Translations under genes and position numbers: made by a program
Notes under the pieces: model-generated
Told to the model about the DNA's origin: nothing
The model's input: only the letters and a program-made list of their open reading frames with translations
Databases searched by the model: none
Shown here: positions 18,131 to 57,464 of the stretch, one piece after another
How positions within the stretch are numbered: position 1 is the first letter of the stretch
Layout of the letters: every line of letters starts with the position of its first letter
From: Chiloscyllium plagiosum
Taxonomy: Eukaryota
DNA: 61,361 bases
Reading direction: 5' to 3'
Assembly: GCF_004010195.1 (NCBI RefSeq)
Contig: NC_057718.1
Location: 31,343 to 92,703, forward strand

Positions 18131-18350
18131 TGAAAATGTGTTGCTGGAAAAACGCAGCAGGTCAGGCAGCATCCAAGGAGCAGGAGAATCGACGTTTCGG
18201 GCATGAGCCCTTCTTCAGGAATCCTGAAGAAGGGCTCATGCCCGAAACATCGATTCTCCTGCTCCTTGGATGCTGCCTGACCTGCTGCACTTTTCCAGTA
18301 ACACATTTTCAGCTCTGATCTCCAGCACCTGCAGTCTTCACTTTCCCCTC
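18131..18350 (+). mobile_element. Fold-back PLE-derived element with two opposed hammerhead motifs
   Basis: 14 bp TSD tattaaccattagc at 18117-18130 and 18351-18364; ~90 bp inverted arms plus a ~35 bp unpaired 3' tail. Confidence 0.9.
18219..18256 (+). ncRNA. Minimal type I hammerhead ribozyme motif
   Basis: GAATC-CTGAAGA-A-GGGC-TCAT-GCCC-GAAAC-ATC-GATTC: stem I 5 bp, stem II 4 bp. The triplet is AUC here and GUC in the minus-strand arm. Confidence 0.75.
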
Positions 18351-30003: not shown

Positions 30004-30236
30004 GAGCTGAAAAATGTGTTGCTGGAAAAGCGCAGCAGGTCAGGCAGCATTCAAAGAACAGGAGAATCGACGTTTCAGGCATAAGCCTTTCTTCAGGAAT
30101 GAGCTCATTCCTGAAGAAGGGCTCATCCCCGAAATGTCGATTCTCCTGCTCCTTGGATGCTGCCTGACCTGCTGCGCATTTCCAGCAACACATTTTTCAG
30201 CTCTGATCTCCAGCATCTGCAGTCTTCACTTTCTCC
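30004..30236 (+). mobile_element. Fold-back PLE-derived element with two opposed hammerhead motifs
   Basis: 14 bp TSD attctgattatatt at 29990-30003 and 30237-30250; perfect central palindrome cttcaggaatgagctcattcctgaag. Confidence 0.9.
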
Positions 30237-32220: not shown

Positions 32221-35200
32221 CATTGTTGTACCGACCTGTGAGCCAATCTAAAGCCTATATATCCTACATTATTTCATTTTCATCCACATGCTTATCAAAT
32301 GACTATTTAAATGCCCTTAAAGTGCACGTGTCTACTATTGCTGCTGGCAGTGCATTCCGCACCCTAGTGTTCTGAGTAAAGAACCTACCTCTGACATCTC
32401 CTATATCTATCACCCCTCAAATTAAACCTATATCCCCTCATGCTAGCCATCACCATCCAAGGAAAAAGGCTCTCACTGTCCACCCTGATAATCTTGTATG
32501 TCTCAATTAAGTCGCCTCTCAAACTTCTTCTCTTGAATGAAAACAGCCTCAAGTCCCTCAGCTTTTCCTCATTCAACCTTTCCTCCATACCAGGCAACAT
32601 CCTAGTAAATCTCCTCTCCACCCTTTTCAAAGCTTCCACATTTGGTGGCTCAGTGGTTAGCAGTACTGCCTCACAGTGCCAGGGACCCGGGTTCAATTCC
32701 CATCTCAGGTGACTGTCTGTGTGGGTTTGCTCCAGTTTCCTCCCACAATCCAAAGATGTGCAGGTCAGGTGAATTGGCCACGCTAAATTGCCCATAGTGC
32801 TAGGTTCATTAGCCAGGGGTAAATTTAGGGTAAGGGAATGGGTCTGGGTGGATTACTCTTCGAAGGGTCAAACCTGTTGGGTTGAAGGGCCTGTTTCCAT
32901 ACTGTAGGGAATCTTTAAAAAAATCCTTCCTATAAAGCAGTGACCAGAACTATACGCAATACCCCAAGTGCGGCCACACCAGTGTTTTGTACAGCTGCAG
33001 CATGATCTCATGGTTCCGAAACTCAATCCCTCTACCAATAAAACCTAACACATCATATGTCTTCTCAGCAACCCTATCAACCTGGGTGGCAACTTTCAGG
33101 GATGTATGTACCTGGACACCGAGATCCCTCTGATCATCAACACTACCAAGAGTCTTACTATTAGCCCAGTACTCTGCATTCCTGTTATTTCTTCCAAAGT
33201 GAATCACCTCACACTTTCCCATATTAAACTCCATTTGCCAACTCTCAGGCCAGCTCTGCAGCTTATCTATGACCCTCTGTAACCTGCAATATCCTTCAAC
33301 ACTATCCACAACTCCATTGACCTTAGTGGTATCCACAAATTTACTAACCCATCCTTCTATGCCCTCATCCAGGTTGTTTATAAAAAATGACAAACAGCAG
33401 TGAACCCAAAACAGATCATTGCAGTACACCATGAGTCACTGAACTCCAGGATGAACATTTCCCATTAATTACTACCCTCTGTCTTCTTTCAGCTCACCAA
33501 TTTCTGATCCAAAACATTAAATCACCCTTAATCTCATGCCTCCATATTTTGTGCAATAGCCTACCATGGGGAACCTTATCAAAAGCCTTACTGAAATCCA
33601 TATACACCACATCAACTGGCTTTACCCTCATCCACCTGTTTGGTCGCTATATCGAAGAACTCAATAAGGTTTGTGAGGCATAACCTACCCTTCACAAAAC
33701 TGTGTTGTCTTATCCCTAATCAACTGAACGCTGTCTAGATGATTATAAATCCTATCTCTTATAACCTTTTCTGACACTTTCTCCACAACCGAAGTAAGGC
33801 TCACTGGTTTACTCCCCTTCTTGAACAATGGGATATAATTTACTATCGAGGTAAAAACAATGACTGCAGATGCTGGAAACCAGATTCTGGATCAATGGTG
33901 CTGGAAGAGCACAGCAATTCATGCAGCATCAGGAATAAAGGCCTTTATTCCTGATGAAGGGCTTTTGCCCGAAACGTCGATTTTGCTGAAGCTCCTCGGA
34001 TGCTGCATGAACTGCTGTGCTCTTCCAGCACCATTGATCCAGAATATCATTTACTATCCTCCAGTCTTCTTGCACTATTCCGGTAGACAAAGATGACAGA
34101 GAGTGGTAAGGGCGTGGAATGCCCTGCCTGCCAATGTAATTAACTCAGCCACATTAGGGAGCTTTAAACAATCCTTGGATAAGCACATGGATGATGATGG
34201 GATAGTGTAGGGGGATGGGCTGAGAATAGTTCACAGGTCGGTGCAACATCGAGGGCCAAAGAGTCTGTTCTGTGCTGTACTGTTCTATGTTCTAAAGATC
34301 AGAGCCAAAGGCTTTGCAAGCTCCTCCTTGGCTTCCCAGAGAATCTTAAGATAAATCCCATCTGGCCAAGGGCATTTTCACACTTTCCAGAATTGCTAAC
34401 ACCTCTCCTTGTGAACCTTAATCCTATCCAGTCTGGTAGCCTGGAGCTCAGTATTCTCCTCCACAACATTATATTCTTCCAGTGTGAATACTGATGAAAA
34501 ATATTTATTTAGCACTTCTCTGATCTCATCAGAATCCATGCACAACTTCCCACTACTATCCTTGATTGGTCCTAATCATTCTCTAATCATTCTTTTATTC
34601 CTGTTCGACCAATATAAAGCTTTAGTGTTTTCCTTGATCCTGTATGCCAACCACTTCTCATGTCTCCTCCTTGCTGTTCCTAGCTCTCTCTCTAGGCTTT
34701 TCCTGGCTAACTTGTAACTCTCAAGCACCCCAGCTGAGCCTTCAAACCTCATCTTAACATAAGTCTTTTTCTTTCTCTTGACAAGAGATTCAACTTCCTT
34801 AGTAAACCACGGCTCCCTTGCTCGACCACTTCCTCCCTGCCTAACAGGTACATACTTATCAAGGACACACAGTATCTGTTCCTTGAGTAAGCTCCACATT
34901 TCAATTGTGCCCATCCCCTGCAGTTTCCATTTCTTCCTATGCATCCTAAATCTTGCCTAATCACATCATCATTGCCTTTCCCCAAGCAACAGCTCCTGTC
35001 CTGCATTACATAAACCTATCCCTTTCCATCGTTAAAGTAAACATAAATGAATTGTCATCGCTATCACCAAAGTGCTCAACTACCTCTAACACCTGGCCAG
35101 GTTCATCACTCAGTACCAAATCAAATGTGACCTCACCCCATGTTGGCCTTTCTGTACACAGTGTCAGCAAACTCTCCTGCATATATTGGACCAAAACTGA

Positions 35201-55029: not shown

Positions 55030-56235
55030 ACAGGATGATGTGTTTGTGAAAATAAATATGCATTAAATGTTCTCAATATGCGAAGTCTTCTTGTCTATGT
55101 AGTGAACTCACTCTGAAAAGAGTACGGAGAATTACAGACTTTTCTGCAGTCTCAATATTAACGAGTGAAAGAGAAAGGGATAATGGATTTATAATACATT
55201 GACTGCAAGGAAGATTGCTTCAGTTTTCAATGTTGTTCGTCAGACAAAAACGAATATCTAGCCAATGAATTTAGCGTCACGAAGCATATTCTAACTTCTA
55301 AATTTCCAAGTGAGTTTTGGCGCTGTTGTGAGAAAGAGTCGAAATGCTAATGGGATGAGGTGGTGTCTTTCTGGAACTGAACAACATTCTGGGGAAGTTT
55401 CTGTGCTTAAGTTGTTTTTCATCAAGATATTTGTGAAGTCGGATTGCTAAACTTTGATATCTACATGCGCTTGGCATTACGTTTCTGTATAAGTAAGTTG
55501 GGTGAAGTTTGCGAAGGAGATTAGAGATGAACTCAGCTAACTTCTGCGTGAAACAGCAAGAGGCAAAAATAGTTTGAGAGTCATTGGAAAGATGTCTTCG
55601 CAATTGTAGGCAAATGGCCAGTTTGACTTCGCTTTCTAAGTAAGACCATGCAAGTGAACGGACTGCAGTTCAATACTCATGATAGCACAGGATATACATG
55701 TACATATTTTCAGTAAAATATTAGCTATGTTTAAGGAAAATATCATCGTCTTGAAAACGTAATGATATGCAACGTTATTATGTTGTACAACGCATGAACA
55801 CACAGAGAAAACACCCTTGACAGAGATAATGACTTACTTTGACAAACAACGCAACCAGTTAAAGTGGCGTGTTACCCACGCGCACATTTGATATATTTTC
55901 TTTCTCAGTCTAAAAATGATTACAGGTTTCATCTGAATTTTTCCAAACAGATATAACAGGCATAAAACATGCGAAAACATGATTTGCAATATCTTAGATA
56001 GCTTCAATGCATTCCTTCCTGGAAAAGCGTTTGCACTTCCTCGCTAACATTTTCATTACTATAATGGAGATTACATTCTTTCAGTTGTATGCATTGTACG
56101 GGAACATTTCTATTGGATTAGTATGGATATGAATTTGCAGTCGCAGCTATGTAATTTTAATTACTTCATGCAATATAAATATGTTCGTGGTTTCAGTAAG
56201 AAAGATGAAGAGATGGAGAGTTACAGATCAGCTTC

Positions 56236-56610
56236 CTTATGAAGGACTTTTGCCCGAAACGTTGATTTTCTTGTTCATCGGATGCTTCCAGACCTGCATA
56301 AAAGCAAATTACTGCAGATGCTGGAATCTGAAACAAAAAAGAGAAAATGCTGGAAAATCTCAGTAAGTCTGGCAGCATCTGTAAGGAGAGAAAAGAGCTG
56401 ACGTTTCGAGTGTAACTGACCATTTGACCCTTTTTGACAAAGAGTCAGTAGACTCGAAACGTCAGCTCTTTTCTCTCCTTACAGATGTTGCCAGACTCGC
56501 TGAGAGTTTCTAGCATTTTCTCTTTTTTGGCTTCCTGACCTGCTGCGCTTTTCCAGCACCACTCTAATCTAGACTCTGATTTCCAGCATCTGCAGTCCTC
56601 ACTTTTGCCG
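56236..56610 (+). mobile_element. Short PLE-derived element containing a nested fold-back element of another family (56298-56529)
   Basis: TSD gcttcc(a/t)gacctgc at 56284-56297 and 56530-56543; inverted arms around ~56425. Confidence 0.82.
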
Positions 56611-57464
56611 AGTGTGGGAATGTGGCTGACTGTGTGGGATTGTGTGTGGCTGTGTCTGTGTAAGGAGAGAGTTGGATTCATCTCTGATAAAGATTCATAG
56701 AAGAATATTTAAGTATAAGTCTATTTTTCTGTGAATCTGTGGTGACTGTGTCAGAGTGTGTGAATGCATGGATGAGTGTGTTTTTGGTTGTGAGAGAGGG
56801 TTTCAGCATCAGTTTTGTGTGAGATTTAGAAAGTGAGAGCGAGAGTGGGAGAAAGAGTGATGGAGGACATATTTACCAAAGTACGACCGTGTGTGAACTA
56901 GAAACTCGAAAGAGATATTAATATCGTCAATTAAAGGGAAACCCTGACGTAGAGAGATTCACAACCAGACTTCCTCACATCCCTCATATAATTTCCAGGC
57001 AGTAACTAGCAACTTGACTCTACATCATAGTAATTTTCTGATACCAACAACATACCCTGGACAGTAATGTTTAATCAATTTCTCATAATTTTTAAGGCAG
57101 TCCCTTCTTCTTTCAACTCAACTTACTAACATGAATCATATTGCACTGTTATAGTTCATCTGCCAATGTTTGAAAAATACAATTCACATGATACAGACAG
57201 CAAAGTAGATGATTGGATGGGATGTAGTGAACTCTGTTACACTCAGTAACTTCATGTTGCAATTTTATAACATCCAGTCAAAACTCTGCCCTGCCACAGG
57301 GAAAATCCACACTGGGTCTGGAAATGTGGACTGGGCAGGGAACATTAATTTAATATGTCACTGAATAAGTGTGTAAATCTCTGCTGCATATGGACATTTC
57401 TGACATTACATTCCACTTGCCAACTACTTGCCCATGCAGTAAACCTGTCAATATCTTTTTACAG

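Follow-up and report, generated by a model that had tools for sequence, protein, structure and literature searches.

A Penelope-like retro-insertion probably carrying a minimal hammerhead motif with a U3-A8 core in Chiloscyllium plagiosum

Does a sequence that departs from the hammerhead core at two mutually pairing positions represent a decayed ribozyme or the fixed state of a family? This question is raised by a 61,361-nt stretch of the Chiloscyllium plagiosum genome (contig NC_057718.1, positions 31,343 to 92,703; hereafter the window), in which TTGACAA-A-GAGTC-AGTA-GACTC-GAAAC-GTC is read at 56434-56463 on the plus strand. As a preliminary description of the locus had it, stem II of this string is a perfect 5-bp GAGTC/GACTC helix, and the leading 7-mer matches CUGAnGA except for U at position 3 and A at position 8. 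In the hammerhead core C3 is accepted to pair with G8, and U3-A8, which restores this pair, is a known natural covariation that is active (PMC4209133 and the accessible part of PMC3088659). We find that UUGACAA is the fixed state of a repeat family, here called family A, and not a decayed CUGAnGA. The locus itself is very probably a two-armed insertion retro-copied from a Penelope-like element (PLE), namely from its 5′ leader, which would carry a minimal type-I hammerhead with a U3-A8 core.

The flagged motif is not a product of chance, since an 18-mer spanning GAAAC-GTC on both strands of the surrounding unit gave 2 matches where 0.01 were expected, and motif plus stem II had 852+860 exact matches in the genome compared with 0+0 for the reversed control. 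The unit around it, proposed earlier for 56298-56529, is real. It comprises 232 bp. Its two 81-nt arms, at 56334-56414 and 56449-56529, are separated by 34 nt and show 93% complementarity. Folded as RNA, the whole unit was predicted to form a single hairpin of -145.2 kcal/mol. It is bounded by a 14-bp target duplication with one mismatch, GCTTCCAGACCTGC on the left and GCTTCCTGACCTGC on the right; the 14 bp were read from the sequence, and the duplication-finding script recovered 12 of them with 1 mismatch. The insertion had gone into a repeat that was already present, a copy of a sister family designated B. The features of the locus are as follows.

56434-56463, plus strand: flagged motif, U3-U4-G5-A6-C7-A8-A9, an extra A, and helix II GAGUC/GACUC with loop AGUA
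Within 56434-56463, plus strand: 3′ half of the flagged motif, G12-A13-A14-A15.1, C15.2-G16.2, U16.1-C17
Between 56463 and 56464, plus strand: predicted cut, after GUC
56464-56467, plus strand: 3′ strand of helix I, AGCU; its 5′ partner has decayed in the window copy (CUUU for AGCU)
56432-56529, plus strand: tail-less arm, which stops at the proximal 3′ end CTCTTTTTTG
56334-56431, minus strand: body of the tailed arm, inverted repeat, with a broken hammerhead motif at about 56395-56431
56298-56333, minus strand: 36-nt tail of the tailed arm, the arm's 3′ end on the minus strand, homologous to the optional tail of family B
56284-56297, no strand: left target-site duplication GCTTCCAGACCTGC, repeated at 56530-56543 with one mismatch
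56530-56543, no strand: right target-site duplication GCTTCCTGACCTGC, from sequence and script
56229-56297, plus strand: 5′ part of the older host repeat (family B), covariance-model match of 33.1 bits at 56229-56277
56544-56609, plus strand: 3′ part of the host repeat including its tail, separated from the 5′ part by the inserted unit

The plus arm of the unit has an intact core but has lost helix I, of which 2/4 pairs are left (U-A and U.G). The preliminary description ascribed this weakness to the inversion junction. It is instead decay specific to this copy, as family A has AGCT/AGCT flanking the core and GTC. The perfect stem II with its AGTA loop is likewise private: family A helix II is GGGTC/GACTC, with one G.U pair and the loop AGTTA, and the window copy derives from it through one G>A substitution and the loss of 1 nt from the loop. 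The motif of the minus arm is altered at U3, U4, A6 and G10.1. A covariance model seeded with one family A and three sister-family copies scored the plus-arm motif (56429-56473) at 28.8 bits (E 4.7e-5), the minus-arm motif (56390-56448) at only 20.8 bits and intact family A copies at 47-50 bits. The window copy is diverged by about 10% and is a dead, promoter-less relic with no present function. The host repeat has its own motif, with a core of the canonical C3/G8 type decayed by a G5>U change (CTTATGA). Directly after the host repeat runs a GT-rich tract of degenerate short repeats (TGTGTG/GGATTGTGTG units; window 56600-56860).

Family A is abundant. At least 2319 first-look candidates for the unit were found in the 3.56-Gb assembly, the best other copies being 87-92% identical, and a 33-mer downstream of the motif had 2633+2570 genome matches at up to one mismatch (reversed control 0+0). 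Three forms of copies were distinguished: short single arms starting at (A)GCTTTGACAAAGGG; two-armed copies, in which the arms stand head to head at this start point; and long copies, whose upstream extension takes in a T-run and, 31-33 nt before AGCT, a TATA box (GTATAAATA...).

Core positions 3 and 8 were evaluated in several ways. Thirty arms were sampled via the downstream 33-mer, which is blind to the core; 8/30 were truncated or rearranged there, and U3/A8 was present in 22/22 arms still holding both positions. Genome-wide, a 20-mer with A8 (TGANAAAGGGTCAGTTAGAC) had 1712+1669 = 3381 exact matches, compared with 19+17 = 36 for its G8 version (TGANGAAGGGTCAGTTAGAC). The covariance model gave 154 matches in 295,859 bases, a sample enriched for family A by the manner of its retrieval. 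The 3-8 pair was U-A in 86/96 A-type matches, with C/A in 4, G/A in 2 and G8 in none; B-type matches comprised 41 C/G and none with A8. Hence, UUGACAA came out as fixed in the family consensus when this check, suggested in the preliminary description, was run; a CUGAnGA consensus, named there as a refuting outcome, did not emerge. A U3-A8 descriptor (TTGANAA, 10-24 nt, CGAAACGTC) yielded 1004+1003 genome matches vs 113+104 for the control; family A accounted for 87 of the first 100 matches listed and was the single U3-A8 family seen among them.

The 36 copies with G8 read TGACGA (23), TGATGA (12) or TGAGGA (1). The 12 TGATGA copies are mixed, with 8 U3 and 4 C3, and include two near-duplicate pairs and one chimera with family C, a further sister family. 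An interpretation of these copies as a C3-G8 or U.G intermediate lineage was rejected; they are heterogeneous and are compatible with an uncommon A>G substitution after which the CpG decayed rapidly. Neither the genome-wide 20-mers nor the model matches revealed a master-level U3/G8 or C3/A8 subfamily, single changes occurring at the 1-4% level of decay. The CpG of GAAA-CG-UC was frequently decayed among family A copies (GAAATGTC, GAAACATC).

With the Rfam hammerhead types I, II, III, HH9 and HH10, family A has the core boxes and helices I and II in common. The RNA of an intact family A copy (e.g. L046) would start AGCU-UUGACAA-A-GGGUC-AGUUA-GACUC-GAAA-CG-UC-AGCU. Both core boxes, UUGACAA and GAAA, are present in the window copy and in family A, and positions 3 and 8 can form a Watson-Crick pair. 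Helix II is closed by G10.1-C11.1, and 95.6% of its cells are paired. At the family level helix I consists of 4 bp (AGCU/AGCU). GAAA-CG-UC supplies A15.1, U16.1 and C17, and with its non-G position 17 the cleavage triplet conforms to NUH. An extra unpaired A stands between A9 and 10.1 in the window copy and in families A, B and C. Between A15.1 and U16.1 there is only C15.2-G16.2, which leaves no room for a loop. Without an intramolecular helix III, the motif therefore fits the dimer-type minimal form only. Positions 15.2-16.2 are part of a palindrome, A-CG-U in families A and B and A-GC-U in family C. The features of the motif correspond to those given for PLE minimal hammerheads by Cervera and de la Pena 2014 (PMC4209133). 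The minimum-energy fold of a natural single-arm copy retained helices I and II at -10.0 kcal/mol, and the hammerhead-only structure was calculated at -8.5 kcal/mol.

Rfam reported no family at gathering score anywhere in the window. At E up to 10, none of its hammerhead models matched the window copy, an intact family A copy or the sister motif with the canonical core, and the unit gave only sub-threshold microRNA hairpins (56.4 bits, gathering 160; 54.2 bits, gathering 90), which are unspecific matches to a hairpin shape. The models miss the motif because PLE minimal hammerheads lack helix III and not because of U3/A8, for the canonical-core sister was missed as well. The earlier expectation that CUGAnGA searches would overlook this family is consistent with a published U3-A8 variant that was missed in this manner, but it does not account for the Rfam result. 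PLE minimal hammerheads thus remain unseen by motif-string searches and by Rfam models, whichever core pair they have.

Further insight came from the sister families. Family B reads AUUC-CUGA(A/U)GA-A-GGGC-loop-GCCC-GAAA-CG-UC-GA(A/U)U, and many copies lie in the window (e.g. 18177-18226, minus; 33943-33992, plus) as well as in L073 (882-931, minus), where the motif is located about 150 nt past the stop of an 893-aa open reading frame (ORF). Its leader and 3′ end are homologous to those of family A, and the two families have their architecture, the GUC cut site and two-armed copies in common. In contrast to family A, it has a C3-G8 core (CUGAAGA/CUGAUGA), a helix II of only 4 bp (GGGC/GCCC) and a helix I of AUUC with GAAU or GAUU; its ORF lineage, which has at least one 893-aa open frame, is 57% identical to that of family A. 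As a PLE that shares the genome with family A but has the canonical pair and helices of other composition, family B provides an internal control. Family C has CUGAUGA, helix II GGAGC/GCUCC, A-GC-U and a UA cleavage dinucleotide (L013:3029-3078, plus; decayed in L038). The copy at L077 (minus) is chimeric: leader and core, together with an inverted arm of their own, come from family C, and inside the hammerhead they are joined to helix II and downstream sequence of family A. It resembles the product of a template switch between the RNAs of these two PLE families.

In an alignment of 146 distinct sequences, the 3-8 pair was UA in 82, CG in 41, UG in 3 and of other composition in 9. The core-adjacent pairs of helix I were CG in 82 and UA in 46, and UA in 91 and CG in 45, respectively; one helix II pair was UA in 93 and CG in 43. 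Paired cells amounted to 91.5%, compared with 25.7-50.5% when the partner was slid. Moreover, 7/9 pairs had changed on both sides, comprising 193 cells vs 71.8 in shuffles; compensatory differences between the consensus families of one genome are also a trait of published PLE minimal hammerheads (PMC4209133). Between family A and the B copy of L073, 12/12 other core positions were identical vs 8/18 alignable non-core positions (one-sided P 0.0015). These data indirectly support the view that the hammerhead fold of the master lineages was under purifying selection and suggest that U3-A8 is a true compensatory state. The preliminary description had placed the whole family under selection. For the motif of the master lineage, this view gains indirect support from the core conservation and the pair-preserving changes in helices I and II.

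Which element carries the motif can be deduced from long copies, in which a decayed ORF upstream encodes a YIDD reverse-transcriptase motif, a Cys/His cluster and a GIY-YIG-type block, all spotted by eye in translations. Eleven loci were retrieved through the ORF. In ten, the motif or the downstream 33-mer was found on the ORF strand, 3′ of the ORF where its position was recorded, and nine of these ten had a TATA-box match beside the motif or 33-mer. Over 446 aa, the L062 ORF (family A lineage) shares 57% identity (E 6e-173) with the 893-aa frame of L073; the latter matched Pfam RVT_1 at 33.0 bits (cut-off 29.6) and GIY-YIG at 21.2 bits, just below the cut-off of 22.6. The ESM Atlas clusters nearest to the PLE ORF contain HTH_animal, RVT_1 and GIY-YIG (score 0.97) and are commonest in Chordata. 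Pfam matches of decayed family A ORFs were weak (L062, RVT_1 at E 0.054); the decayed ORF of L033 had no Pfam match, and decayed ORFs of this lineage found no match in NCBIfam or among PDB sequences. PLEs encode a reverse transcriptase with a GIY-YIG endonuclease and carry hammerheads in flanking repeats (Cervera and de la Pena 2014, PMC4209133). The motif described here is located in the terminal repeat of an element with both activities encoded, and on sequence grounds family A belongs to a PLE lineage.

Some additional observations concern the ORFs. The 893-aa open PLE frame of the sister lineage (L073:1079-3760, minus) begins with about 170 residues that form about four tandem repeats of ~40 aa. 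Apparent open frames of 996-1156 aa from the genome search proved to be runs of N and were discarded; such runs lie in or beside PLE copies at L071, L072, L042, L066 and L082.

How did the two arms arise? A simple script detected target duplications of 6-16 bp in 38/50 two-armed copies, a range in keeping with target-primed retro-insertion and not with a cut-and-paste element. The arms stop either at CTCTTTTGG or 36 nt beyond, in a so-called tail. Exactly one arm was tailed in 10/10 two-armed copies of the 33-mer sample. In a second set picked by the centre (n=20), 14/15 classifiable copies had one tail, one had none, no copy had two and 5 were unclassifiable. Combined, 24/25 classifiable two-armed copies have a tail on one arm (L032, L036, L040, L043, L045, L047-L051, L086-L105). 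Junctions with a single shared AGCT were found at 358 places in the genome. In long or 5′-truncated elements the inverted arm is fused at other points (L062, L055), and two-armed copies of family B in the window (about 18177-18265 and 30055-30152, centres near 18216 and 30100) have their two junctions at differing distances upstream of the core. As the junction point varies, the inversion was therefore made at each insertion.

We propose the following course of events. Transcription would start at AGCT, as suggested by the distance to the TATA box (31-33 nt) and by where short copies begin. The first 39 nt of the PLE RNA would fold into a minimal type-I hammerhead, in which the self-complementary A-CG-U replaces the helix III hairpin. 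Master elements of family A probably had U3-A8 where the sister PLE family has C3-G8, an isosteric Watson-Crick swap. Target-primed reverse transcription at nicks in both DNA strands probably produced the two arms from such RNAs: one was begun at a distal start site of reverse transcription (giving the tail) and the other at a proximal one, and they would have been joined at the RNA 5′ end via the 4-nt AGCT overlap. The flagged motif would then be one arm of a promoter-less, 'dead on arrival' insertion from the first ~100-137 nt of a PLE transcript. That a tailed arm is as a rule combined with a tail-less one, and that the AGCT overlap has a part in joining them, is our reading of such genomic copies. 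By analogy with published PLE hammerheads, the motif would cut after GUC only in a dimer, with two ACGU sequences pairing as helix III, and/or with the help of the element protein; we regard this step as about as likely as not.

Several points weigh against the interpretation as a ribozyme-bearing leader. An ordinary hairpin with a bulge, held by GAC/GUC pairing, is an alternative fold of these 39 nt, and a protein-binding role could account for part of the motif conservation. The covariation stems from only two or three lineages (A, B and C) and thus represents many sequences and few events. All ORFs seen in the family A lineage are truncated or contain stops, and the transcription start is a predicted one, placed by the TATA distance and copy 5′ ends. 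Furthermore, two-armed junctions at or near the cut were found at only 4 places in the genome (1 exact) vs the 358 at the RNA 5′ end, the two patterns having been searched at different stringency, and 0/30 sampled arms start exactly at the cut; L059 starts a few bases before and one L032 arm a few after. In vitro, PLE minimal hammerheads from the literature cleave poorly (Cervera and de la Pena 2014, PMC4209133), and in an Anolis PLE cleavage needed protein and was dispensable for insertion (Frangieh et al. 2024, PMC11167929). Since the motif is retained in full and starts at the cut are very rare among copies, the inserted RNAs were uncut. This agrees with the uncut templates of the Anolis PLE, whose hammerhead mutants insert like wild type in vitro and for which no RNA-seq ends were found at the cut (PMC11167929).

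A few arms start 5-8 nt past the predicted cut at (C)TTTTCTCTCC (L032, L062:985-1010, and contigs of run X9 on L070 3486/3488); these are too few to separate a hot spot from chance. Records of RNA on the family numbered 139 and 0 in two single-cell poly-A runs and 402 and 186 in two contig sets. The 139 reads, from a 3′-tag single-cell library unsuited to cuts and at a depth of 40 or less, displayed no pile-up of starts or ends. Read ends lay loosely at the AGCT start and the tail boundary, as embedded copies would give. Contigs from a run labelled as another organism span the motif with no alternative letter listed at U3 or A8. At L070:3470 (helix II position 11.2), G replaced T in 13/28 plus-direction reads with 13 distinct starts in the raw RNA of run X19; a G at 11.2 would oppose a G in helix II, and the same GACGC variant occurs in some genomic copies.

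The explanation that competes best is that the whole family is a catalytic relic: activity was already lost, C3>U and G8>A are unrelated transitions, and a protein-binding 5′ hairpin was conserved while the element kept amplifying because cleavage is not needed for retrotransposition. We regard this as possible but clearly the less probable reading. The retention of the whole motif in copies that almost never start at the cut speaks for it, as do the Anolis mutants that insert as wild type, with no RNA-seq ends at the cut (Frangieh 2024, PMC11167929), the low activity of minimal hammerheads (PMC4209133), the fact that both changes at positions 3 and 8 are transitions, and an alternative hairpin fold 1.5 kcal/mol better than the hammerhead-only structure. 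Set against this is the pattern of change in the core. Of 14 constrained positions only the two that pair with each other have changed, to an isosteric pair, and the other 12 are identical while 10/18 neighbours differ. In addition, helix I was rebuilt with different pairs, and single changes at 3 or 8 are found at the 1-4% decay level and not as a master-level U3/G8 or C3/A8 subfamily. According to the accessible part of Perreault 2011 (PMC3088659), U3-A8 ribozymes are active and natural.

A further, rather unlikely possibility is that the hammerhead was kept mainly as a pairing scaffold for insertion with two templates into two strands, and not as a nuclease. The self-complementary AGCU of helix I and the ACGU standing in for helix III would pair two RNAs or nascent cDNAs. 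This would explain the shared-AGCT junctions at 358 places, the distal and proximal arm starts in 24/25 copies and the near absence of cut copies. If it were true, U3-A8 would show that the core fold is what selection acts on.

It is very improbable that the palindrome represents a DNA transposon of the type of miniature inverted-repeat elements, or a microRNA or hairpin-RNA gene, with an incidental likeness to hammerheads. The 81-nt, 93% inverted repeat, the sub-threshold Rfam microRNA matches and the single predicted hairpin of -145.2 kcal/mol would suit such an origin. However, every Rfam match is far below gathering, target duplications vary from 6 to 16 bp, the same sequence is found as single arms and at the 3′ end of long elements with reverse transcriptase and GIY-YIG, and the arms end at two fixed unequal points, unlike terminal inverted repeats. 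Chance decay of a CUGAnGA family at positions 3 and 8 in the window copy can practically be dismissed: this copy did decay elsewhere (stem II G>A, loop deletion, helix I, minus-arm core), but U3/A8 is shared by 22/22 arms, outnumbers G8 by 3381 to 36 and marks the 87 family A copies among the first 100 descriptor matches listed.

Taken together, the interpretation as a two-armed insertion of a PLE leader with a U3-A8 hammerhead is the one we favour. Family A offers a clean natural case of a C3-G8 to U3-A8 change in thousands of arms. The two-armed footprint may serve studies of PLE integration more than the core variant itself. The swap as such is not new, having been published for natural hammerheads in 2011 and for a Schistosoma PLE in 2014, and family A is a new example. 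In a literature search of incomplete coverage, we found no report of a U3-A8 PLE hammerhead in this kind of genome.

Comparison with known systems places family A among them as follows. Natural U3-A8 covariation in several hammerheads, already proven active in vitro, is described in the accessible part of Perreault et al. 2011 (PMC3088659), and these ribozymes have the same compensatory swap of C3-G8 as family A. The closest counterpart is the Cercyon PLE of Schistosoma mansoni, with a U3-A8 minimal hammerhead that had about 1300 hits and was missed by a CUGAnGA descriptor (PMC4209133). Like family A, it has a type-I minimal hammerhead in a PLE flanking repeat, with U3-A8, an unpaired base between A9 and 10.1, G10.1-C11.1, a short helix I and palindromic 15.2-16.2 without a helix III hairpin; its copies are mostly dispersed and single, with opposite-strand pairs a short distance apart. 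It differs in host phylum and sequence family and in a helix II of 7-8 bp instead of 5 bp. In family A, which is known from sequence alone, the motif begins at the presumed +1 of the transcript. PLE minimal hammerheads are thought to act as dimers, in which two palindromes form helix III (PMC4209133).

For the insertion itself, the Poseidon PLE of Anolis carolinensis is the relevant system. Unlike family A, it has a C3-G8 core and an ORF starting inside the motif, and it is known from biochemistry whereas our data are genomic footprints. The rule of one tailed and one tail-less arm (24/25) was not found described for Poseidon in PMC11167929. Its hammerhead near the start of the unit, its tailed and untailed copies (the tail being 36 nt here) and its use of uncut RNA as the main template resemble what is seen or suggested for family A. 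The Poseidon protein nicks and extends both DNA strands and uses two internal start sites of reverse transcription 30-40 nt apart, which yields copies with or without a tail (Frangieh et al. 2024, PMC11167929). The two-armed copies described here match this two-strand nicking and extension. Tailed and tail-less arms, a 4-nt overlap and few starts at the cut site thus constitute a genomic footprint that agrees with the in vitro findings on priming and uncut templates of the Anolis PLE (PMC11167929).

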